Shown: in pieces, positions 1,205-63,854 of the stretch
Layout of the letters: each line of letters opens with the position of its first letter
Position numbering within the stretch: position 1 is the stretch's first letter
Assembly (NCBI GenBank): GCA_947495975.1
Contig: CANMBE010000002.1
Span: forward strand, 89,192-153,191
DNA: 64,000 bases
Reading direction: 5' to 3'
Source: Ignavibacteria bacterium
Lineage (GTDB): Bacteria > Bacteroidota > Ignavibacteria > Kapaibacteriales > Kapaibacteriaceae
The notes under the pieces: generated by a model
What the model saw: the letters and a program-made list of their open reading frames with translations, nothing else
Databases searched by the model: none
Told to the model about the DNA's origin: nothing
Position numbers and translations under genes: made by a program

Positions 1205-1236
1205 CTGTATATATTGTTTACATTTTGTATATTGTC
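1205..1236. promoter_or_regulatory. candidate operator upstream of the S24 repressor: CTGTATATATTGTTTACA (TGTA..TACA ends) followed by an imperfect direct repeat TTGTATATTGT
   Basis: Palindromic and direct-repeat structure in the 70-bp gap before the LexA-like gene. Similar in style to a CTGT-N8-ACAG SOS box but not identical. Confidence 0.2.
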
Positions 1237-1268
1237 CACACGTTTCCACATTCAAAAACGGTGATACT

Positions 1269-2036
1269 ATGCAAACAAAGATTCAGCTTGGTGTACGCCA
1301 TCGCCAGATTAGAGAATCTGTGCTTCAAATGTCTGTAGCTGACTATGCAAAGCAAATGCAGGTGAAGGTTCCAACCGTGTATTCGTGGGAATCTGGGCGT
1401 ACAAGCGTCCCTCAGGACGTACTTGCCAAACTCGAGAACCGTTATGGCATTTCATCCGGCTGGTTGCTCACTGGCGCTGGATCTCCAAAGAGCATCGCAA
1501 CGGAGCCGGATTCAAACACCACCCAAGCATCCAAGAGCGCATTAGAGCGTTTAGAAGAACAAGTTCATGCTATCCGCAGTGTGATTGCAGAACTAAAAGC
1601 CCACTCGCCCCTTGTGGTAGCTCCTGCACGCTTATCAAAGGGGGCTCGCGGTACACGTATTCCCATGCTGTCACTCGGTGTAAGCGCTGGGCAACCAACA
1701 GCATCGGACGACACAATTGAACGTGAGATTGACCTTGCGGACATGCTCCTAGAGCACCCGGAGAGCACATATTTTATTCGTGTTGTAGGCGACTCAATGA
1801 CAGATGCCGGCATAAGCGATGGTGATACGCTCATCGTAGACTGTGCCGTGCAGCCCCGCTCAGGACAAATCGTTATAGCAAAGGTCTACGGAGAGCTCAC
1901 CGTGAAACGCTACATCAAGGCTGAAGGCCGCCCTGTGTTGCGTGCTGAGAACAGACGCTACAAGGACATTGCTATAACGGCCGAAATGGACTTCACAATC
2001 GTTGGCGTGGTTCGTAGCTGCATTAAAAAGTTCTGA
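1269..2036 (+). CDS. XRE-family HTH / peptidase S24 LexA-like (CI/UmuD-like) autocleaving repressor
   Basis: N-terminal Cro/C1-type HTH (VADYAKQMQVKVPTVYSWESGRTSVPQDVLAKL). C-terminal S24 fold with a GDSM serine motif (VVGDSMTDAGISDGDTLIVD) and a downstream Lys (VKRY). Confidence 0.75.
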   Translation: MQTKIQLGVRHRQIRESVLQMSVADYAKQMQVKVPTVYSWESGRTSVPQDVLAKLENRYGISSGWLLTGAGSPKSIATEPDSNTTQASKSALERLEEQVHAIRSVIAELKAHSPLVVAPARLSKGARGTRIPMLSLGVSAGQPTASDDTIEREIDLADMLLEHPESTYFIRVVGDSMTDAGISDGDTLIVDCAVQPRSGQIVIAKVYGELTVKRYIKAEGRPVLRAENRRYKDIAITAEMDFTIVGVVRSCIKKF

Positions 2037-2091
2037 ACTCAACGTTGGAATAACTTTACGATGTCAAATCATTCTACATTTTGTAGAATTG

Positions 2092-3051
2092 CAAATGATC
2101 ATCTGCATCGTTATCGAAGACGTACTTTCTCAGGCCCGCTGGGATGCTATTGTTGAGCGTGTACACGCCTACACTCCCCTGCTTGTTGTCGCTAAACATG
2201 GTAGGCTCTACTCTGGAACTGACAACCTTGACGGCTTGCGGTCACTTGTTCAAAAAATTCGCGCGCACGCCGCGCTAGCACCAGACCGTACGAGTGCGCT
2301 GCTCTGCGCATTATATGGCACATGCGGAAGGTTAGATGCCTATGCATCCGCAGAAGAGGTGCCAACCTCTGTACTATTGAATATTCCTGAACTTGATCTT
2401 CATGAGCAAGATGCAGAGCGTTTGAGTCTCTTTGGCATGCGCACAATTGGAGATCTGAGCGCGCTGCAAGAGAGACATCTACGCGTACAGTTTGGTAGTG
2501 CAGGAAGTAGACTCCATACCTTTCTCACTTCACAGAGTTCTGCACTCCCATTGTATGTGCCGCCCCCTGACATTATCAGTCGCATTCGCTTTGATGATGC
2601 ACAACGCGAACCCGGCGTACTCGTTGAAACGTTGCATTACTGCGTAAGCCAAACCGTTCAGGAGCTTGCACCACAGCTATGTTGGCGCATTGAGGTTGCC
2701 GTGCTCGATAAAGCTGACGAGCTCTGTGCACAGCGCGGACGTGTATTGCGCAACGGTGTAACAACAGTCGATGCGATACTTGTTCATGCAAGAGCGCTGT
2801 TACGTGAGTTGCTTCATCCAACACGACTGTGGTGGGGAATCCGCGTGCGCCTCGCATCACTTACTCCACCACAGGCTGCACAAACACAACTATTTGTTGA
2901 GCGTAAGACTGCTCAGGATGTTTCGAACGGTATGCTTCCACGTTATGCACAAGTGATGAAGCGAGTAGAGATCCTCAACCCGTGGTCAATCGTGCCTGAG
3001 CACTATGCACGCCTTGTGAGATATTCACAAGACCCACAAGGAAACGTATGA
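2092..3051 (+). CDS. imuB: ImuB-like Y-family DNA polymerase-like protein, catalytically inactive type, N-terminal body
   Basis: Y-family HhH/thumb signature (LLNIPELDLHEQDAERLSLFGMRTIGDLSALQERHLRVQFGSAG). The palm is shortened and lacks DinB catalytic acids. It sits between the S24 repressor and dnaE2. The start was chosen at an internal ATG to avoid overlapping the upstream gene. Confidence 0.5.
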   Translation, partial: QMIICIVIEDVLSQARWDAIVERVHAYTPLLVVAKHGRLYSGTDNLDGLRSLVQKIRAHAALAPDRTSALLCALYGTCGRLDAYASAEEVPTSVLLNIPELDLHEQDAERLSLFGMRTIGDLSALQERHLRVQFGSAGSRLHTFLTSQSSALPLYVPPPDIISRIRFDDAQREPGVLVETLHYCVSQTVQELAPQLCWRIEVAVLDKADELCAQRGRVLRNGVTTVDAILVHARALLRELLHPTRLWWGIRVRLASLTPPQAAQTQLFVERKTAQDVSNGMLPRYAQVMKRVEILNPWSIVPEHYARLVRYSQDPQGNV

Positions 3052-3284
3052 AACTGTTGCTCGAGCCAATCGATGTTGGTTGTCGCAATAACACACCATA
3101 CGTTATCTGCTGGCGAGGAGGTGCATACGATGTGGAAAGCGTGCTTGACTCTTGGAGCAGCCGAGGTCCGTGGTGGGGCAAGGACGAACTGCGAGACTAC
3201 ATCCTGCTTATGACAACATCCGGCGTGATGGAGATCTACCGTAGCAACCTACATGGTTGGATGTTATCACGAATGTTTGACTAG
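3048..3284 (+). CDS. imuB: ImuB C-terminal module (DUF4113-like, RDY..G..W.L.G.FD) encoded as a separate overlapping ORF
   Basis: WWGKDELRDYILLMTTSGVMEIYRSNLHGWMLSRMFD resembles the conserved C-terminal domain of ImuB-type proteins. It begins with an ATGA overlap on the imuB stop, in a different frame. Confidence 0.45.
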   Translation: MKLLLEPIDVGCRNNTPYVICWRGGAYDVESVLDSWSSRGPWWGKDELRDYILLMTTSGVMEIYRSNLHGWMLSRMFD

Positions 3285-3304
3285 GTACTGAGCTGAATCA
3301 TCAC

Positions 3305-6300
3305 ATGTTTGCCTCACTCCATACGCGTTCACACTTCTCCTTCCTCGATGGAGCATCGTCTCCTGAAGAATTAGCTCAGCATGCAGCACAGCTTGGCCAT
3401 CATGCTATTGCACTTACAGACAGCTATGGTGTATACTCTGCCGTGCGTCTGCAACGTGCTTGTCTCGCGCACGGCATTGCGCCGATCATGGGAACTGATA
3501 TCTCACTACATGGTGTAATGGTCTCCCTCCTTGCTAAAGATCAACGAGGATATGAAGAGCTCTGTGGTCTTATCACAAGAATGAAAGGTGATGCAGACGT
3601 TGATGCACTCAAAGCAGTTATGCAGTTACAGCAGTGTTTCACAATTGTTCATTGTAGGGCAGATGATCTAGGCAATATCCATGAACTGCTGAGCCCCCTA
3701 TCAAAAACAGGCACCTTTGTTGGCATATCACATGACGGTAGACCGTGGGCAAAACGTCGCGCCGGTAGCATCGTACAACTCGCTCAATCACACGGCATAC
3801 CAATCGTAATTGCACAGGATGTACGATATGCTACGCCTGATCAGTATGCAACACATGATCTCATGACGTGTATACGCGAAGGCATCACCATCTATGAACC
3901 ACATCCACTACGTCCAGTAAATGACAGACATTGCCTGCGTAGTGAACATGAACTGAGATCGCTCCTACCATGGCCAGAAGCATTCGATGCAGTTCATGAA
4001 ATCATACGTCAGTGTAGCTTCAATATCATACCGGAACATATCACGCCCCCTTCTGCAAAATTGAAAGCTGACGAAACGGCTATTAATGTTCTACGAGAAA
4101 CATGCTGGAAGGCATTCCCGAAGCGTTACACGAATATGCAGAAGCAAGCATCGGATTTACTAGAACACGAATTAGATGTAATCGGAGATCTAGAGCTTGC
4201 CGACTTTTTTCTTGTTGTAAAAGAAGTGACAGACGAAGCACGTCGCCGTACAATACGATGCTCAGGCCGTGGCTCGGCGGCTAATTCAATAGTAGCCTAT
4301 CTGCTTGGTATCACAGGAGTATGCCCAATCAGACATCATCTACTCTTTGAACGCTTTCTGCATAGGGGGCGAAAGGGCACCCCAGATATTGACGTAGACT
4401 TTGATAGCGACAGACGGAACGAGATTATCACATGGATGGAAAATCGCTTTGGTATTGACCGCACGGCCATGACGGCTACATTGATCATATACCGCACACG
4501 CATGGCTGTACGCGATGCTGCGAAAGCCCTTGGCTGGCCAATGGACACTGTGAACAAACTCTCTAAATGTGTACCGTCGTGGACAAGCAAAGCCATTAGT
4601 GATTACCGAGAAGATCTCTCGGCTGTATGCGGTGATGTGCCATTGCTCGACGTACTCATCCGCTCTGTGCAGCTGCTACTCAATCATCCACGTCACCTGG
4701 GTTTACACTCAGGAGGAATGATATTGTCATCACGCTCACTCAACACATGTACACCTGTTCAACGCTCTGCCAATGGTGTTGCTGTTGTGCAGTTCGACAA
4801 GGACGATGTAGAAGCAATGGGGCTAGTAAAGTTTGACGTTCTCGGCCTGCGTATGCTTGCCTGTGTAAGTGAGGCTGTAGAACTCATTGCACAACATACT
4901 GGTTGCCTCATTGATATTGACGAGCTCCCGCTAGATGACGAAGACACCTACAACCTCATTCGTAGTGGTCATACACTTGGCGTGTTTCAAATAGAATCAC
5001 AAGGACAGATGCACTTACTCGCAAAACATCAACCGGAAAACTTTGATGACTTGGTTACGGAGGTTGCTCTCTTTAGACCAGGCCCACTACAAGGTGGTAT
5101 GGTGCATCCATATATCGCACGGCGCAAAGGCATACAGCCCATAACATACATACACCCAGACCTAGAGCCAATCCTGAAAGATACGCTTGGCATTGTACTC
5201 TTTCAGGAGCAGGTATTAGAAATAGCACATCGGTTTGCAGGTATGCCTCTAGACGAAGCTGATGATTTTCGTGCATTAGTGTCCAAGAACAGGGATCGTG
5301 TTTTGATGGAGGCCATGCGAACACGATTTATTGAAGGGGCTAAGCAACGCGGTGTTGATTGCGATAGTGCAGAACAAGTCTACGAGAAGCTCTCGCACTT
5401 TGTGGGCTATGGATTTTGCAGATCACATGCTGCTGCCTTTGCGAAGATCGTCTATCAGAGCGCTTGGCTAAAGCAACATCATCCTGCTGCATATATGGCA
5501 GCCTTCATGCAACATCGCCCAGGCATGTACAATCTCATGACGCTAGAAGATGAAGCACGACGATTTGGAGTAGATATCCTTATGCCAAATTTGGAAATAT
5601 CAGGTATGCGCTACCACCTAGAAACAGTATCTGAGGGTTCATTTGCTATACGTAAGCCCCTTACCAGTGTAGCTCATATAAGCGATGATATTGCACGCCT
5701 CATCGTGTGGGAGCGCTCATGCTCGCCATTCGCAAACATAGAAGACATTGTTGTGCGACTGCCGAACGTCCCACGTGATGCACTAGAAGCACTTGCGCTA
5801 TCCGGCGCAATGGAACCATGGGAGCCAGATGCACGCCGCGCCCTATGGATTGTTGGCGTTGTAAAAAGAAGATCGTCAGGTTCTGTACCATCACTACTAT
5901 CCGTGCCTATACTGCATAAGGACGATGTGCCAATCCTACCAGAACTTCGTGCACAAGAACGTCTCGCATACGATTATATAACACATGGTGCGGCACGTGT
6001 ACATCCTATGACGCTCTATAGGCGCAGCCTCATAGACTTAGAGGTACGCTCGATCGATATCATAAAGCGACTGCCTCTAACACCTGTAGCAAGGGTTGTT
6101 ACCTCCGGTATCGTTATCCTGCGTCAAGCACCCGCTACGGCACATGGCATGTTATTCGTTACACTCGAAGATGAAACAGGCTTTGTACAGTGTATAGTAA
6201 AACCTGAAATACGAGATCTCTTCCGCAAAGAGCTCCGCAATGCGTCCCTTGTTGTAAAAGGTACACTACATGGTACAGCAAACTGGCGTGGAATCATGAT

Positions 6301-6421
6301 AGAAGAGGTTCGCATATTAACAAACGTCATCGGTGGATATCATGGTCACCTCTCGTTTGCTGGCGGTACTGACACACTTGAAATTGGTGCCATCACAAAA
6401 GAAAGGGCCAACGTTCAGTGA
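3305..6421 (+). CDS. dnaE2: error-prone DNA polymerase DnaE2 (ImuC)
   Basis: N-terminal PHP domain (FASLHTRSHFSFLDGASSPEELAQHAAQLGHHAIALTDSYGVYSAVRL). Its 1038-aa length is typical of DnaE2 and it is linked to the LexA-like/ImuB genes. Confidence 0.85.
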   Translation: MFASLHTRSHFSFLDGASSPEELAQHAAQLGHHAIALTDSYGVYSAVRLQRACLAHGIAPIMGTDISLHGVMVSLLAKDQRGYEELCGLITRMKGDADVDALKAVMQLQQCFTIVHCRADDLGNIHELLSPLSKTGTFVGISHDGRPWAKRRAGSIVQLAQSHGIPIVIAQDVRYATPDQYATHDLMTCIREGITIYEPHPLRPVNDRHCLRSEHELRSLLPWPEAFDAVHEIIRQCSFNIIPEHITPPSAKLKADETAINVLRETCWKAFPKRYTNMQKQASDLLEHELDVIGDLELADFFLVVKEVTDEARRRTIRCSGRGSAANSIVAYLLGITGVCPIRHHLLFERFLHRGRKGTPDIDVDFDSDRRNEIITWMENRFGIDRTAMTATLIIYRTRMAVRDAAKALGWPMDTVNKLSKCVPSWTSKAISDYREDLSAVCGDVPLLDVLIRSVQLLLNHPRHLGLHSGGMILSSRSLNTCTPVQRSANGVAVVQFDKDDVEAMGLVKFDVLGLRMLACVSEAVELIAQHTGCLIDIDELPLDDEDTYNLIRSGHTLGVFQIESQGQMHLLAKHQPENFDDLVTEVALFRPGPLQGGMVHPYIARRKGIQPITYIHPDLEPILKDTLGIVLFQEQVLEIAHRFAGMPLDEADDFRALVSKNRDRVLMEAMRTRFIEGAKQRGVDCDSAEQVYEKLSHFVGYGFCRSHAAAFAKIVYQSAWLKQHHPAAYMAAFMQHRPGMYNLMTLEDEARRFGVDILMPNLEISGMRYHLETVSEGSFAIRKPLTSVAHISDDIARLIVWERSCSPFANIEDIVVRLPNVPRDALEALALSGAMEPWEPDARRALWIVGVVKRRSSGSVPSLLSVPILHKDDVPILPELRAQERLAYDYITHGAARVHPMTLYRRSLIDLEVRSIDIIKRLPLTPVARVVTSGIVILRQAPATAHGMLFVTLEDETGFVQCIVKPEIRDLFRKELRNASLVVKGTLHGTANWRGIMIEEVRILTNVIGGYHGHLSFAGGTDTLEIGAITKERANVQ

Positions 6422-16217: not shown

Positions 16218-19200
16218 CTACTTACCCCCTGAGATAGAGAGGCGGATGTCTAGACCCACCTGGGTGGTACTGAAACCGGGATTTGCCGCTCCTTCGCTGA
16301 AATTCCCCTCATACCGAAAGAAGGCCGATGCCGTAACGCGATTGCTAATAGTGTAGCGGGCACGGGGCTCAATGATGATCTGAGTAGTGCCGGTAACAAG
16401 GGATCCATCTGGGCCCTTGTACTCGAGTATGTCATATTGCGCCCGGAGACTCTTGCGGACTTGAGCGTTAAATGTGAACTCTAGATCATTCTGAAGGTCC
16501 AAACCAAAGATCTTCAATGTTACACCACGCCGTAAATACGAAGCCTGAATCTGCATCTCATGGGAAGTCTCTCGCGAAATAGTTGATCGTGCCGAGGAAT
16601 TCAATCCATGCGTAGTTGTGACGCTATAGCGCGCCGTGGCGGTTAGGAGACCATTAAGCTTGCGTTCATCAAACGCTAAATTGAGTCCAATGAGCGGCGT
16701 GAATCCGGACTTCACTTGCTGAACTTCAACAAACCTACCATTGTCATTAATTCGAGCGTTTTCAGTGTACGTAGATTGATACGAATGCTCTAAGAATATT
16801 CGTTGTGCAATGCCTCGGAACGGTCCAATTTTTTCAATGCCATCCCAACGCAGCGTCCAATTTATCGCAGGCATAATTCGACTGATCTCACTTATAAAGG
16901 GCGATAGTGATTCAAATCCTTCACGGAAGGAAGTTGACAATGCCTCTAATAATCTGGCGCTACGAGTGGTAGTATCTGGATCGGCTTCAATCACCGCTTT
17001 GCGTTCATTGTACAAGGTGATCACTGATTCAACATTATCACCAAATAATCCAAAAGGCATATCAGGAAAGCTTATGAAGCTCCGCTCAACTGTCTGTCTC
17101 TTGATGACATTTGTAAACGTGGGAGTCCCTGCCGCATCAGTAATGACACGCTGATTTCTGCTATAACCAACATCCGTGCGCATGTTGAGATCAAGCGTTG
17201 CGCCTGGCCACAAAGGACGATTTGTCTGAAACTGGAAATTTGACTTCTGGTTGTAGTCATCCTGCATCACAGCATTTGCCGGACGTTTGCCCTCGGTTGT
17301 CTCAAATCGAAAGAATGGGAAGGCTGAACTAGTTGCAAGATTAATCCCGCCGTGTGGGTTAGAGATAAGTCCTAACTGATATGCCGTGCTTGGACCCCAG
17401 GTAGGATCATTATCGCGGAACGTTAATGAACGTGCCCAAAGGTTTGTAAATCCATTACCGCCCAAAACACCATTGTTTACTGCAGTATTTGTTTGGTTAA
17501 ATGTGAACGTAAAGTTTTCGAATCCAAAGAACAACTCTTGAAGAATTGAGCCAATATCATCGGCACCTTTCTTTGATGCACCAAAGATTTCTGAACCAAA
17601 CTGTCGCCAACGAAACACGGGACTCAATCGCATGTTTGAGAGATATCTACCCGTTCGGACAACATCACGTTGTGCAGGATCAGGTTGCAATGGGTCAACA
17701 ATACCATAAACAACATTGTATGATCCGGTTGTCTCAAGAAGTCGATTTAAGCCCCATATCTCCGGCAGTTTAGGGCGAATGGAGATTGTTACTGTCTGAT
17801 TATAGACGTTATCGCTACCAAAATTGAAAAGTGCACCTTTGGATAAGAACATTTCATCAACAATCTGCCCCCCGGTACGCTGCCTACCATTAGCATCTAG
17901 TTCAAAGGGGACAAGTGTTGAGAATGAGGTGACCTTATAATCCAGTACTGGACTTAAGAATCCATTTTCAACAATTCGCCAGTTGAATCCAAATGCCTTT
18001 TCAGCAATAAACTCACGAATGATCGGACTTGGTTGTGACAGATAGCGCGACTGTTCCGTTGTGCGCGCACGTGTCATCCCAATATTCGCTGTAATTGTCT
18101 GCGGCAGAAAGTTGATTTTCATATCCTTGTATGCCTTCAACGCAAACACATCGGCAAGGAACTTGAAGGGGCTAACGTCATACTTTGCTGGCAACGTTAC
18201 CGCATAATCGAGCCGGAATCTCCAGCGCCAATCAAATCGCTGTTGCACAACCTGAGATCTCTCAAACTCTTGTGCATATGAAAAGTTGAACGTCAACTTG
18301 TTAAAGGTATCATCTATGTACCACGCCTTTGATGGGATTCCCAGTCGCATACCTGTAAGCGCCCATTGATCCTGAACACGAACTCGTTGTGAACGCGTAT
18401 ACACGTTGTTTGATGCCTGCTCTGCCGCCTGTGCAGTACCTCCCGAGGCAAGCGTAACTCTAGCAGCCGCCGCCGCTGCAGCATCGAGTTCCACATCATT
18501 CTGGGCTTGATATTTTGGTGTTTCAGCGAGTTCTGTATGTGAATATGTCACAGGAATACGTGTCTCTTTCATATCCTTCGGGAGAAATTTTTCGAGTCCA
18601 AGCTGCAGCGTTGCATTCCATGATGTGGATTGCATGCGACTACCGAATCTGTCTTCTAATCGATGATAGTTTGGAGTAGTGTGATTAATCGACGCGGTAA
18701 AATCTCCTAGGTCTGCGAGCTTTAATGTGGAGCTAGCGATTCCAGCCCAATCATTGTCATTCATTGGGTCCACTACCCGCAACTCATCCACCCACATGGT
18801 TGTAGAGAGCTCGTTTGGATATCGTTCTGCAGGATTAGCAATACCAAAACCAAAGAACGAAACACGAGTCATAATTGGGTTACCCTTTATCACATAGGTC
18901 CCTTGTGGATCACCTGGAACGGGGAATTCTTGTCGCTCATTCGTTCTCGTTGGGTCTCTGAGTTCCTTGATGGCTGTAAGATCTGCAACTACGATACGTA
19001 GGTCTTGCCAGCCCCTTAGCAGTGGTCTGCGGTATTCATAATAGTTGGCCGAGTCTACGCCGTAGCGCACAAAACAATACGCTGGTGGTGTTGACCCTTG
19101 CGTGATGCTGCTCGGCATTGTGTTGTCTCCATGAACAAAGAATGCCAGTTCCTTGTAGTAGAATAGATCCCACGGTTGGAATATTCGCGCAGCAAATCTC

Positions 19201-22200
19201 TCTTCTCCATATCGGAGGTTTCTGGCCTTTACAACCAGTGACTGCTCATTCAAATATACCTGCTGGTACGGATCGGGGTTCTGCAATTGCTGCGGTGGTT
19301 GAACACCAGGGGGCATCACATAAAAGTCAGGTGCGCTCTGGTTTTCTTCACGGTTTACGTAGGCTACTTGCAGCACTGAATCATTCGATGATATGTTTGG
19401 CTGGAATTGGTGATTCCGCAGCCAATACGAGCCAACAACACCCCAATCAGCGATCGACACTTTTACAGCACCACCCTGAAAGTGAACACGTGCATATTGA
19501 ATATTTGTAAACAACGGATTGCCAACAATCGTGTCTGGTCTGCGTACAGGAATTCGGAACTGATACCAACCAGTCGCGGGATTACCACCCACGATCTGAG
19601 GATTCGTTGATGGATTTGGGTTGAGTTGTATTTCATAACGGAAATAGCTGTTATCAAGTGAGATGGTTTGCCCATTGTTCTTATTCAGAATTTCGGTATC
19701 AGGGAATTGCCCGTTTTCGGACTGCGTTGCGTTGCCTTCATAGTTGTTGTACTGAACAAACTGTGATTCATTTTGATTCTGGCGGTCAGCAGTGAAATTA
19801 AAATTGTAGTCGTCACGTGCCGGATCACTCTCTCGATTGAGTGGGTCTGCATAGATAACACGTTCGCGATCATTCAACAACGTGTCTATACCCACATCTT
19901 CACCAACATCAATCAAATTGTTAGGGGGCGTGCGGTCCTCAGTATTAAGACGCTGATTGGGTATCACATCTTCACTTATCTGACCAAGATCAATAAACAT
20001 GCGCGAGCCCGGCTCATACGCATCGATCTTCATCATTATTTCGATGTAGTCAATGTTGTCATTGTCAAAATTTGTGTTGAAAGCTGAGAGCAAGCGCATC
20101 ATACCACCCCAAATACGATCTCGATTTGGTGCAAGGTAAGCCTGGGTTTGAGCACGCACGGTCAATGAATCAGGATCGTTCCATCGCGGGTTCCTTGCAT
20201 CGAGGAACTCTGGGTTGGGATTGTAGATTCCACGCTCTTCGGGATTGAATACCAGACGAATCGGATTAATATTCGTGCGACCCTGCACGCGCGCGCGGTT
20301 AGGATAGACATCAGATTGAGCAACGTCAGGAACAAATTTCTGATACCAAAATGTCTTGCCCTTGAATTTTACTGCCGTGGTATCATGATCCCATTTTGAC
20401 TCTTCTTTTGCAGGTGATGCATGAGACCAGACGAGTGGAGTCAAACCAAAAGAGAGATACCGCCGTGCACTTTCAAAGTCATCAACGTAAGCAACTGCCC
20501 TTCCTGCGTCGCTGGCTACGGAAGAAACACGCTTGTTGGGGGTTGGTGAAACCATGGCCCATTCGCCCGTAAATGACAGCGTCGACTTTTCCTTCGTATC
20601 TAATCCAGGGAGAGCATCAAGGGCGCTCGTTAGCCAGGGCAGCTCTGCATTGAACTTTGCATCGAAGCCCATCATGAAATTTGAATTGGGTTCCTGACCA
20701 GGCACAACACGATCAATGATTGCCGCCTGATCATAGTTCATCAGCGTCATTCCAATCGAACCGTTCATTCGCCGCTTGTTGAAAAGGATCATGTCAGCAC
20801 GAAGTCCAAGAAGTGTCCTTGTCGTGAGATTAAAAATATCGTTCTGCTCATATTCAATGTTGAGGTTTGCATTTGGTAGCGTAGCTCGTGCATTGAGCAG
20901 AGACAATGTTCCAGAATAATAGTCTACCATAAAGTCCACACCTTCGCGCAAAGGTGCTCCGTCTAACGAAACTCTAACGCTACCTGGGGCCAATTGATAC
21001 GCTAGTTGAATTCGATTGCCAGATGCCGAACCAGCCGCCTCGCCAACAATTAAGAATCGGTTCTTTGCTGTCACAAGGCGGGCTGCTGCATCAGTCGTGT
21101 CATATACTTCATTGTATACGTATTGTTCAGCTAGTTGAGCGTTACCCTTCAAAGCGAAGTATTCCCGAAGGCCTTCTCTAAAAGGCTCTAGACTTGGGAA
21201 CGTAATTTCACCCCGAAGTGAATTAAAGACGGGAGGGCGCGCATCAAACACTCCATCTGGCGGCGCAGCGCCAGTACCGTTGTTTACTTGATCGATGCGA
21301 AAGATTGTCGGGATTTTGTCAGGAGCCCCCTCCAAAACATCTGTTGAGTCATTCGTGGATCGATAATACCACATGCCGATTTTTGCGTCTTGTGGATTAA
21401 CATTCGAGACTCCAATGTTATAGATGTTGCGCATCATCCGCTTCCACAACAACGGAAATCCTGGCTGCATTTGTGGTCGCGCAATGAGCTTTAAGATCAG
21501 CGTGTCTTTTTCGTTGACATTGCTCGTGGTAAGTGTACCATGGTAGAAATCGTCGGTTACATCGAGAGTAGGACCTTCTGTTCTATACGCTACTGCGTAA
21601 TATCGATCCGTACGAAGATTGAGGATTGTAACAGTTCCAAGGTTTACGTCTACTTCGTACCTCTTGTTATCAAGCCTTGTAAATCTACCTCGCTCCACTT
21701 CGCCGGCTTTGATTGCCTGATTCTTTAGAGCGTTAGGATATCGTTGTGCAAGCAAGTACTGAAGTGGGGCGAGATCGGCGATAGCTACGGCTTCATTGGC
21801 TTGAACTTCTTGCAGATCAACCGTTGATTCCCACACTTCAATTTCCTTCACAACAACAGGGGCTGCGGCTGGCGAAAACACAGGCGTCGTTGACCGGAAA
21901 TATGATTTCCAGACAGAAAAATATGCCGTGTCGAGAAAAAAGTGATTGCGGGCATAGTCATAGGCGCGCACATTGAACGTCTGACGCGAAGAGCCGCCAC
22001 GCGCATTAATAAATTTGCGCTCGCCTCTCTTTTGTGATGCAATGGTCTTGAGGTAGAGTGGGCCAAATTGAAAGTCCGCCCTTACTCCAAATAATGTCTG
22101 TCCCCCACCAATCAGAGTGCTTTGTGTTTCAAGATTGACATTGCCGAACTCTACTTTTTTGATGATGTCGTCGTCAAATCCGTCATATCCAACCTTGAAT

Positions 22201-63763: not shown

Positions 63764-63854
63764 GGAGGGGTGGCCGAGTGGCTGAAGGCAACGGTTTGCT
63801 AAACCGTCATAGGGATTTTAATCCCTATCGAGGGTTCGAATCCCTCCCTCTCCT
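63764..63854 (+). tRNA. tRNA-Ser (anticodon GCU), class II with a long variable arm
   Basis: Hand-folded: acceptor GGAGGGG/CCTCTCC, D-arm GCC..GGC, anticodon loop TTGCTAA, 8-bp variable stem and T-arm GAGGG-TTCGAAT-CCCTC. Confidence 0.85.

Follow-up and report, generated by a model that had tools for sequence, protein, structure and literature searches.

The closest described relatives of the system reported here are mutagenesis cassettes that combine an inactive Y-family protein, a standalone protein corresponding to the C-terminal part of ImuB (ImuB-C) and DnaE2, without ImuA; they were described computationally by Timinskas and Venclovas (PMC6511836). In Deinococcus, the ImuY/ImuB-C/DnaE2 cassette is controlled by RecA and LexA and required for UV mutagenesis (PMC8072749). 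We analysed a stretch of 64,000 nucleotides (hereafter called the window) from an Ignavibacteria bacterium (assembly GCA_947495975.1, contig CANMBE010000002.1, positions 89,192 to 153,191), which harbours a cassette of this type headed by a repressor that, judging from its sequence, is not a LexA. Four co-oriented genes on the + strand, spanning positions 1269-6421, code in this order for the repressor (1269-2036, 255 residues), the catalytically inactive Y-family polymerase scaffold ImuY (2095-3051, 318 residues), ImuB-C (3048-3284, 78 residues) and the error-prone C-family polymerase DnaE2, or ImuC (3305-6421, 1038 residues). With a probability of about 0.8, we consider that they form a self-contained, autoregulated, RecA-triggered, damage-inducible translesion-synthesis operon devoid of ImuA in a Kapaibacterium.

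The proper template for this locus is the variant lexA-imuY-imuB-C-dnaE2 (Deinococcus, Kyrpidia type), with which it shares an S24 repressor, an inactive Y-family protein, an ImuB-C of approximately 80 residues, DnaE2 and the lack of ImuA. The two differ by the regulator, which is a canonical winged-helix LexA (PF01726) in the former, whereas an XRE/434-type helix-turn-helix (HTH) domain is joined to a UmuD-like S24 domain here, and by the operator. A LexA-headed cassette, to which the one described here is homologous over its length, is also present on the best plasmid hit, Abditibacteriota pIAD-21 (AP024153.1:72598-78669), where a winged-helix lexA gene is followed by a 78-residue open reading frame (ORF) and by genes for a 417-residue IMS protein, a 111-residue DUF6504 protein and DnaE2. 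In hhalign comparisons, the Kapaibacteria ImuY profile matched the 417-residue protein over 360 columns (99.9%, E = 5e-32), and the ImuB-C profile matched the 111-residue protein (96.3%). The three middle genes of the pIAD-21 cassette are annotated as hypothetical, and the 78-residue ORF after lexA has no family.

The initial annotation had rightly described an SOS-type mutagenesis cassette without imuA, but it took the canonical imuA-imuB-dnaE2 operon as a template and regarded ImuB as split. Canonical systems (Caulobacter, Mycobacterium, Pseudomonas; Rhizobium rhizogenes pC5.7c) do have DnaE2, a dead Y-family scaffold with a clamp motif, the DUF6504/ImuB-C module and SOS-type control in common with the locus, but here ImuA is missing, ImuB-C is separate from the Y-family polypeptide and the repressor gene is part of the operon. 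No candidate ORF for imuA was found inside or between the four cassette genes, and none of the 30 larger window ORFs included in the scan encodes ImuA, RecA or LexA. Full-text literature searches on Kapabacteria together with DNA repair, and on DUF6504, yielded nothing relevant.

By scanning one genome per species, we collected 44 related loci, most of which bear the name Kapaibacterium or Ignavibacteria, while a few have plainly wrong labels; the NCBI taxonomy places Kapaibacterium in the phylum Bacteroidota. Searches with the four proteins (tblastn) showed that the order repressor-imuY-imuB-C-dnaE2 is kept in about 40 of these 44 loci, with repressor identities of 56-88%. The repressor gene is always the first of the operon, and no imuA lies between the cassette genes of the ~40 loci. 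Repressor homologues form 91 protein clusters, nearly all full-length members of which are 53-99% identical; the few clusters named at their source carry labels such as Kapabacteria, Chlorobi or Bacteroidetes. The exact repressor sequence is also present on two ENA metagenome contigs. In an exhaustive hidden Markov model search of 1.8 billion representatives, the repressor family proper amounted to approximately six clusters at 50% identity, after which the scores dropped sharply.

The repressor harbours an HTH_3 domain (PF01381, 31.7 bits, residues 14-66) and a Peptidase_S24 domain (PF00717, 100.6 bits, residues 137-248), with no match to the LexA winged helix (PF01726). It is laid out as a five-helix XRE/434-type HTH (residues 1-70), a variable linker with a helix at residues 91-112 and a UmuD-like S24 domain. 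The AlphaFold2 model has the same organization, with five helices, a disordered hinge containing helix 91-112 and a confidently predicted, beta-rich C-terminal domain. The initial annotation had named a lack of the Ser/Lys dyad as refuting its reading of this XRE-HTH/S24 protein as an autocleaving repressor, and the dyad is in place: the putative cleavage site Ala140-Gly141 (in VSAG), Ser176 (GDSM) and Lys213 (TVKR) are invariant in 19 repressor homologues, down to 42% identity.

The S24 domain is closer to that of Escherichia coli UmuD (44% identity, 101 bits) than to that of LexA (38%, 67 bits). The NCBIfam UmuD model NF007621 scores 124.6 bits against a cut-off of 110, while the LexA model reaches 85.3 bits against a cut-off of 110.95. 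UmuD chains also lead the PDB sequence search, and a Foldseek search with the model returned UmuD' as the top match, followed by LexA and lambda CI. The fold matches the chains of LexA, UmuD and lambda CI that were solved on RecA filaments (8gms, 8gmt, 8gmu). As for the N-terminal 75 residues, used as a profile they best match the repressors of phage 434 (E = 1.4e-5) and P22 (c2, E = 6.5e-4), and we classify the HTH from its sequence as of the phage 434/P22-c2 type. The name that PGAP gives to this protein, 'translesion error-prone DNA polymerase V autoproteolytic subunit', is accounted for by its UmuD-type C-terminal domain.

Outside of the family, the next full-length relatives of the repressor are found in Chlorobi, the Chlorobi prophage repressors having C-terminal domain identities of 37-47%. 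Two of the relatives are prophage repressors, each divergent from prophage genes: in Chloroherpeton thalassium (CP001100, about 317-326 kb), the gene faces away from Mu-like transposase, MuB, GemA and Mor genes, and in a Chlorobiaceae metagenome-assembled genome from an AlpA/terminase prophage. In two further Chlorobi relatives, the gene stands alone in the chromosome, in one case beside hrcA-grpE-dnaJ. The operator motif identified in Kapaibacteria (see below) was not found in the upstream regions of the Chlorobi relatives. No close relative of the repressor was present among 2.9 million IMG/VR viral contigs, which gave only two distant matches restricted to the C-terminal domain. That domain scores 55 bits with the LexA of the pIAD-21 cassette, no closer than with other LexAs, which indicates that the whole gene was replaced rather than the DNA-binding domain alone. 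The simplest history would thus be that a phage-type repressor gene took the place of lexA at the head of a pre-existing cassette. We also considered a LexA/XRE domain swap, based on a protein (P0080) with a LexA winged helix and an S24 domain 68% identical to that of the repressor. Its sequence reads like a LexA from actinobacteria that passes into a Kapaibacteria C-terminus right at GDSM, and this protein, encoded on an 860-bp ENA contig, is most likely an assembly chimera; the swap was rejected.

S24 repressors other than LexA have been described in several lineages. The non-canonical LexA proteins of Bacteroidetes (Sanchez-Osuna et al. 2021, PMC8565304) recognize the operators CTAA-N5-TTAG and TTAC-N5-GTAA and govern a broad regulon, which includes imuA-imuB-dnaE2 in some species. 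They share with the repressor described here the phylum, the HTH_3 and S24 domains, the Ala-Gly site, the Ser/Lys dyad, the logic of autoregulation, which is predicted here, and a palindrome with a 5-bp spacer (here CTAC-N5-GTAG), but they possess a long C-terminal helix that is missing here, and signs of a broad regulon were not seen in the window or in the flanking DNA of relatives. Membership in this family was rejected on several grounds. BLASTP against the full-length, experimentally characterised P. actiniarum protein WP_025606010.1 gave an E value of 4.2, neither of the two characterised C-terminal domains (Data S5; WP_025606010.1, WP_075324850.1) was matched at E values up to 10, and hhalign detected only a generic HTH match with 39.8% probability. 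We read the likeness of the operators of these unrelated repressors (a 4-5-bp dyad with a 5-bp spacer) as convergence or shared HTH geometry rather than as a sign of family membership.

UmuDAb of Acinetobacter, which is wrongly annotated as UmuD, cleaves itself at an Ala-Gly site, and its repression is confined to error-prone polymerase genes (PMC11332147). Judging from its description and from the UmuD-model score, the repressor resembles it in having a UmuD-type S24 domain joined to a DNA-binding N-terminus. The N-terminus of UmuDAb is LexA-HTH-like and unrecognised by Pfam, whereas that of the repressor is a clear HTH_3 domain; UmuDAb depends on the co-repressor DdrR and on an operator that is large and atypical, and it controls umuDC, while the predicted target here is imuY-dnaE2. 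HdiR of Streptococcaceae is a phage-derived XRE-HTH/S24 repressor of a minimal damage response, which in S. uberis heads a single mutagenesis cassette (as cited in PMC8565304). Similarly, FddR of Francisella is a phage-derived XRE-HTH/S24 repressor co-opted for a minimal damage response, with the operator GTG-N11-CAC (PMC13148647). Both differ from the present case by their lineages, operators and polymerases (UmuC/DinB). Finally, the lambdoid repressors (434 cI, P22 c2) and the Chlorobi prophage repressors have the same two-domain plan, 434 being the best solved match for the N-terminal domain and the Chlorobi proteins the closest full-length outgroup, but the gene described here lies outside any prophage and heads a host polymerase operon.

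The identity of ImuY was resolved only by combining a profile with a structure model. As a single sequence, this 318-residue protein has no match in Pfam and none in the PDB, and DinB models match it weakly and partially. In contrast to this, a profile of 26 orthologues retrieved only Y-family polymerases from the PDB (Pol IV 7yll with E = 1.2e-8, MsDpo4, REV1 and pol eta), and individual orthologues match the IMS, IMS_C and IMS_HHH_1 models. With the AlphaFold2 model of ImuY (pLDDT 76.9), the top 50 Foldseek matches are all Y-family polymerases, with E values down to 4e-12. The 26 orthologues have no invariant Asp, and their sole invariant Glu, E172, is located far downstream of the N-terminal palm segment expected to hold the catalytic carboxylates; ImuY is thus a dead Y-family polymerase. 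The positions where these carboxylates would be expected, determined by eye, are occupied by I7 and K35-H36 in the window protein. A beta-clamp-type motif (Q263-T-Q-L-F267), whose Q263 is nearly invariant across the orthologues, is found in a low-confidence and presumably disordered segment. In the clade of the window, ImuY is shorter by approximately 66 N-terminal residues than in deeper relatives (loci L028-L046; missing after the first strand, 'LFPDLPA...RGRVV...'), an unusual degree of reduction for a Y-family scaffold. In public annotation, ImuY homologues go by the name of 'hypothetical protein' and have no Pfam domain assigned.

The imuB-C gene starts within the end of imuY, its ATG overlapping the stop codon in a 4-base ATGA. 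The window protein scores 26 bits with DUF6504 (cut-off 24.2), a domain matched by all 20 orthologues analysed (best E = 1e-12), and Trp and Arg residues are invariant among the 20. In a canonical ImuB, that of the imuA-imuB-dnaE2 operon of R. rhizogenes pC5.7c, DUF6504 covers residues 429-504, after IMS and IMS_C, which identifies the third gene product as the ImuB C-terminal domain in the form of a standalone protein. It is a separate, intact ORF of 76-103 codons in every locus examined, and of 76-78 codons in all but two. What had been taken for a split ImuB is therefore an inactive Y-family protein followed by a standalone ImuB-C, with this arrangement and its 4-base overlap present in some 40 loci. 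No solved structure was found for ImuB-C with either a single sequence or a profile. The 78-residue imuB-C ORF is uncalled on an ENA contig (L001:9849-10103), the one contig checked for gene calls.

DnaE2 contains the PHP, polymerase, finger, HhH and, weakly, OB domains of C-family polymerases. Its best NCBIfam model is that of error-prone polymerases, NF004225 (866 bits, model positions 6-1033 of 1047), while the replicative DnaE model NF004226 gives 662 bits and ends at position 1059 of 1146, short of the tau-binding region. Together with a length of 1038 residues, this agrees with the earlier assignment as DnaE2 rather than replicative DnaE. The NF004225 score is below the NCBI curated cut-off of 939, making the window protein a divergent member. 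Among 72,556 plasmids, the best matches are 31-43% identical over nearly the full length and are all annotated as error-prone polymerases; the matches to dnaE are weaker and partial.

We then considered how the cassette may be controlled. The 11-mer TACATTTTGTA occurs exactly twice in the 64 kb, at 1219-1229, 40 nucleotides before the repressor ATG, and at 2075-2085, 10 nucleotides before the imuY ATG; it was independently picked up as repeat D4. It is the core of two candidate operators of the type TCTAC-N5-GTAGA, a 15-bp palindrome. The first, O1 (TTTACATTTTGTATA, 1217-1231, 19.4 bits), lies upstream of the repressor gene, has the core TAC-N5-GTA at 1219-1229 and overlaps a -10-like TATATT. 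The second, O2 (TCTACATTTTGTAGA, 2073-2087), is a perfect 5-5-5 palindrome that overlaps the -10 box of imuY and, with 22.4 bits, is the best site of the window. The initial annotation had pointed to a TGTA/TACA palindrome at 1205-1236 as a candidate for a non-canonical operator. This palindrome is real and the prediction of a non-LexA operator is upheld by conserved sites, but its extent is narrower than proposed, and the second copy had been missed.

Bit scores come from a matrix built from 34 distinct sites of relatives. O1 and O2 are the only sites of at least 11 bits in the window, and with a threshold of 19 bits, shuffled sequences give 0.01 sites. The related loci, which amount to 545 kb, contain 81 sites of at least 15 bits, compared with 0-3 in shuffles. 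Those scanned with upstream sequence carry an equivalent operator 33-55 nucleotides before the start of the repressor gene. Of the sites scoring at least 14 bits in relatives, only about ten lie elsewhere than at the promoters of the repressor and imuY genes; seven of them precede dnaE2. These seven correspond to loci (L005, L009, L010, L012, L014, L015 and L032) in which 3.4-4.3 kb are inserted between imuB-C and dnaE2, and where the detached dnaE2 gene has its own operator approximately 10 nucleotides before its ATG. In one of them, the insertion (L009:9012-12475) contains two opposite-strand genes, for an 828-residue protein with an AHPDDE (PIG-L-like) motif and for a 278-residue protein. 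A conserved inverted repeat, GAAACT-N6-AGTTTC, is found just upstream of the dnaE2 operator in the insertion loci. The layout of the operators also varies with phylogenetic depth: in deep-branching relatives, a tandem pair precedes the repressor gene and imuY has none, while in the window clade one is found before each. This change of layout, through which the unit stays regulated, and the new operator of detached dnaE2 genes indicate that the regulation follows the mutasome genes.

The operators cover putative -10 boxes, the classical position for a repressor. The repressor promoter as read from the sequence would comprise a putative -10 box TATATT (1228-1233, + strand) and a weak -35 box CTGTAT (1205-1210). 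In relatives with recognisable sigma-70-like boxes, it consists of a -35 box TTGACA, TTGTCA or TTGTAT, a 17-nucleotide spacer that contains the left half-site and a -10 box TATAAT, TAGAAT or TAAATT over the right half-site. For imuY, a consensus scan identified a promoter-like site at 2061-2089 (+ strand), with ATGTCA, a 17-nucleotide spacer and TAGAAT. Relatives of the window clade have TTGTCA, 17 nucleotides and TAGAAT or TATAAT, followed by 5-6 nucleotides up to the ATG. Because the -10 box ends 5 nucleotides before the imuY ATG in the window, with a similar distance in relatives, the imuY transcript is probably leaderless. The overall sigma-70 consensus scan showed no enrichment (11 sites, versus 9.2 in shuffles), and the promoter calls thus rest on their conservation in relatives. 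A direct repeat, TATATTGTTTACA / TATATTGTCCACA, with copies 18 nucleotides apart, flanks the repressor operator (1210-1240). Relatives keep only its second copy, which in some of them continues into a degenerate second operator, TCCAC-N5-GTAGA, that has decayed in the window.

The analysis shows the domain content, the catalytic and cleavage residues, the inactive ImuY and the position and conservation of the operators of the proposed operon, and from them we infer DNA binding, cleavage, damage induction and protein contacts, along with the leaderless imuY transcript. In an undamaged cell, a dimer of the HTH-S24 repressor would sit on the 15-bp operators over the -10 boxes of its own promoter and that of imuY, blocking transcription. 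Upon DNA damage, RecA filaments formed on single-stranded DNA would trigger self-cleavage at Ala140-Gly141 by means of Ser176 and Lys213, which would part the DNA-binding domain from the dimerising domain and free the operators. Next, imuY, imuB-C and dnaE2 would be expressed along with fresh repressor, the latter resetting the system. It is likely that ImuY docks on the beta clamp at a stalled fork through its clamp-binding motif, and ImuY and ImuB-C may recruit DnaE2, which would copy past the lesion with low fidelity. RecA probably stands in for the missing ImuA. Earlier examples of S24 repressors that differ from LexA and act on error-prone polymerases alone are HdiR, UmuDAb and FddR (PMC8565304, PMC11332147, PMC13148647).

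Several points weigh against this reading. The matrix was made from the same sites that were then counted in relatives, which makes the counts partly circular, and the training set includes, from other species, sites identical to the two of the window. In this genome, the repressor promoter has a poor -35 box. A scaffold function of ImuY is assumed, given the approximately 66 N-terminal residues that are absent in the window clade, and the replacement of ImuA by RecA is a hypothesis from the literature (PMC6511836). Lastly, no cultured representative of the lineage was identified. Two observations are free of the circularity of the matrix, namely the tandem-versus-split layout of the operators and the presence of a proprietary operator at detached dnaE2 genes.

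Other explanations can be weighed against the same data. The repressor might have a wider role, as the master SOS regulator of Kapaibacteria. It would then be the third 'non-canonical LexA' that was independently recruited in Bacteroidota, and recA, uvr and further repair genes elsewhere in the genome would have operators as well. We regard this as possible at best, although phage-like S24 repressors did take over a full regulon in Bacteroidetes (PMC8565304). Consistent with such a role, one related locus (L044:6998-7744) keeps the repressor gene and its operator with no mutasome cassette adjacent. The same apparently holds for another (L034:6947-7747), whose contig ends ~300 bp after the gene, and the latter also has, away from the cassette, an extra operator-like site of 17.3 bits (L034:3924-3938) with a matching ATTGTAGAA -35-like box. 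However, no site reaches 11 bits at the uvrC, mutS, holB, lon and ogg genes of the window, and the flanking non-cassette DNA of the 44 loci contains only about three sites of at least 14 bits outside cassette promoters, near the shuffle expectation. This scarcity speaks for a narrow regulon, comparable to those of UmuDAb and of HdiR in S. uberis. A bolder version appears somewhat more doubtful: Kapaibacteria, and possibly their Chlorobi relatives, would have no working canonical LexA, and the repressor would be the SOS master regulator, a third 'LexA substitute', with a regulon still limited to about one operon; in its strongest form, the cleaved half would also be a mutasome subunit. The extra site of L034 lies in a 0.9-kb ORF-poor stretch that contains a low-complexity repeat.

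A dual role, in which the cleaved, UmuD'-like C-terminal dimer would join ImuY, ImuB-C and DnaE2 as an accessory subunit that compensates for ImuA, is unlikely. It would fit with the above-mentioned proximity of this domain to UmuD rather than LexA, including the curated UmuD cut-off that it passes and the UmuD' top match in structure, and with the constant first position of the gene in the operon. Nevertheless, prophage repressors of Chlorobi share the UmuD-like domain while lacking a polymerase partner, cleavage is predicted at an Ala-Gly site of the kind known from repressors rather than at the Cys-Gly of UmuD, homologous cassettes have an ordinary LexA at the same position, and ImuB-C has already been proposed as the small-subunit analogue (PMC6511836). 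Less probable still, and largely refuted, is the idea that a prophage left the S24 repressor gene behind next to the polymerase genes, on which it would exert no control. Its nearest relatives outside Kapaibacteria do include Chlorobi prophage repressors and its N-terminal domain is of the 434/P22 c2 type, but no phage genes are close by in this core chromosome context, the viral contigs yielded no close relative, the adjacency is kept in ~40 related loci and the same operator is found at the repressor, imuY and detached dnaE2 promoters. Just as improbable is a decaying, non-working operon, with imuB split by a frameshift and truncated at its N-terminus. Such a decay would account for the short ImuY without Pfam match, but the short form is common to more than 20 related loci at 38-70% identity without stops. 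The split is refuted by the intact imuB-C ORF with its invariant Trp and Arg residues, and standalone ImuB-C is an established architecture (PMC6511836, PMC8072749).

Both halves of the proposed damage-inducible operon are thus known, i.e. the ImuA-less imuY-imuB-C-dnaE2 cassette on the one hand and non-LexA S24 repressors that silence error-prone polymerases on the other hand. What is new is their pairing, together with the apparently independent, phage-related origin of the repressor in a deep branch of Bacteroidota and the operator motif. Error-prone polymerases need to be silenced until they are required, and a repeated recruitment of S24 repressors has been argued from HdiR, UmuDAb, the Bacteroidetes non-canonical LexA and FddR; to these, the locus contributes one more case that is apparently independent, from a deep and uncultured branch of Bacteroidota. 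It illustrates cleanly, in nature, how a regulator can be exchanged for a non-orthologous one while the operon around it stays fixed. The regulatory logic is unchanged: the operator lies over the -10 box, autoregulation is predicted, and genes that become detached gain an operator of their own. The TCTAC-N5-GTAGA motif can be used for regulon prediction in Kapaibacteria. Automated surveys would overlook the system because the repressor is misnamed, ImuY is called 'hypothetical' and imuB-C is uncalled on the contig checked. The finding is of moderate interest for the evolution of the SOS response and useful for annotation, and in principle it is unsurprising.

The genomic context of the cassette is that of a core chromosome, with parA/parB, the type IX secretion gene porQ, hrcA-grpE-dnaJ, rimO, pheS, infC, lon, holB, uvrC and mutS in the window. 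The GC content of the cassette is 0.486, for a window mean of 0.483 +/- 0.010 in 5.2-kb windows, so that the composition shows no deviation that would point to a horizontal acquisition. The upstream neighbour (1-1197 in the window, clipped by its start; full gene at L001:6481-7995) codes for a 504-residue protein with no Pfam or NCBIfam family and has a GC content of 0.42. About a dozen related loci have this gene as the upstream neighbour of the repressor gene, mostly on the same strand, and both flanks of the cassette, the 504-residue protein gene and truA, recur beside it in many relatives with repressors 57-88% identical. Neither phage genes nor a mobile-element context was found in the window or in relatives, and we rejected a prophage or mobile-element setting, also in view of the only two, distant and C-terminal-domain-only, matches among viral contigs. 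Taken together, the GC content, the core context and the recurrent flanks do not support a recent horizontal acquisition of the cassette, which the initial annotation had considered possible in view of the AT-richer neighbouring gene and the window edge. Elsewhere in the window, we noted an ORF of 2271 codons at 16218-23033 (- strand) and, at its end, a 91-nucleotide tRNA gene (63764-63854, + strand; Rfam, 57.8 bits) that adjoins mutS.

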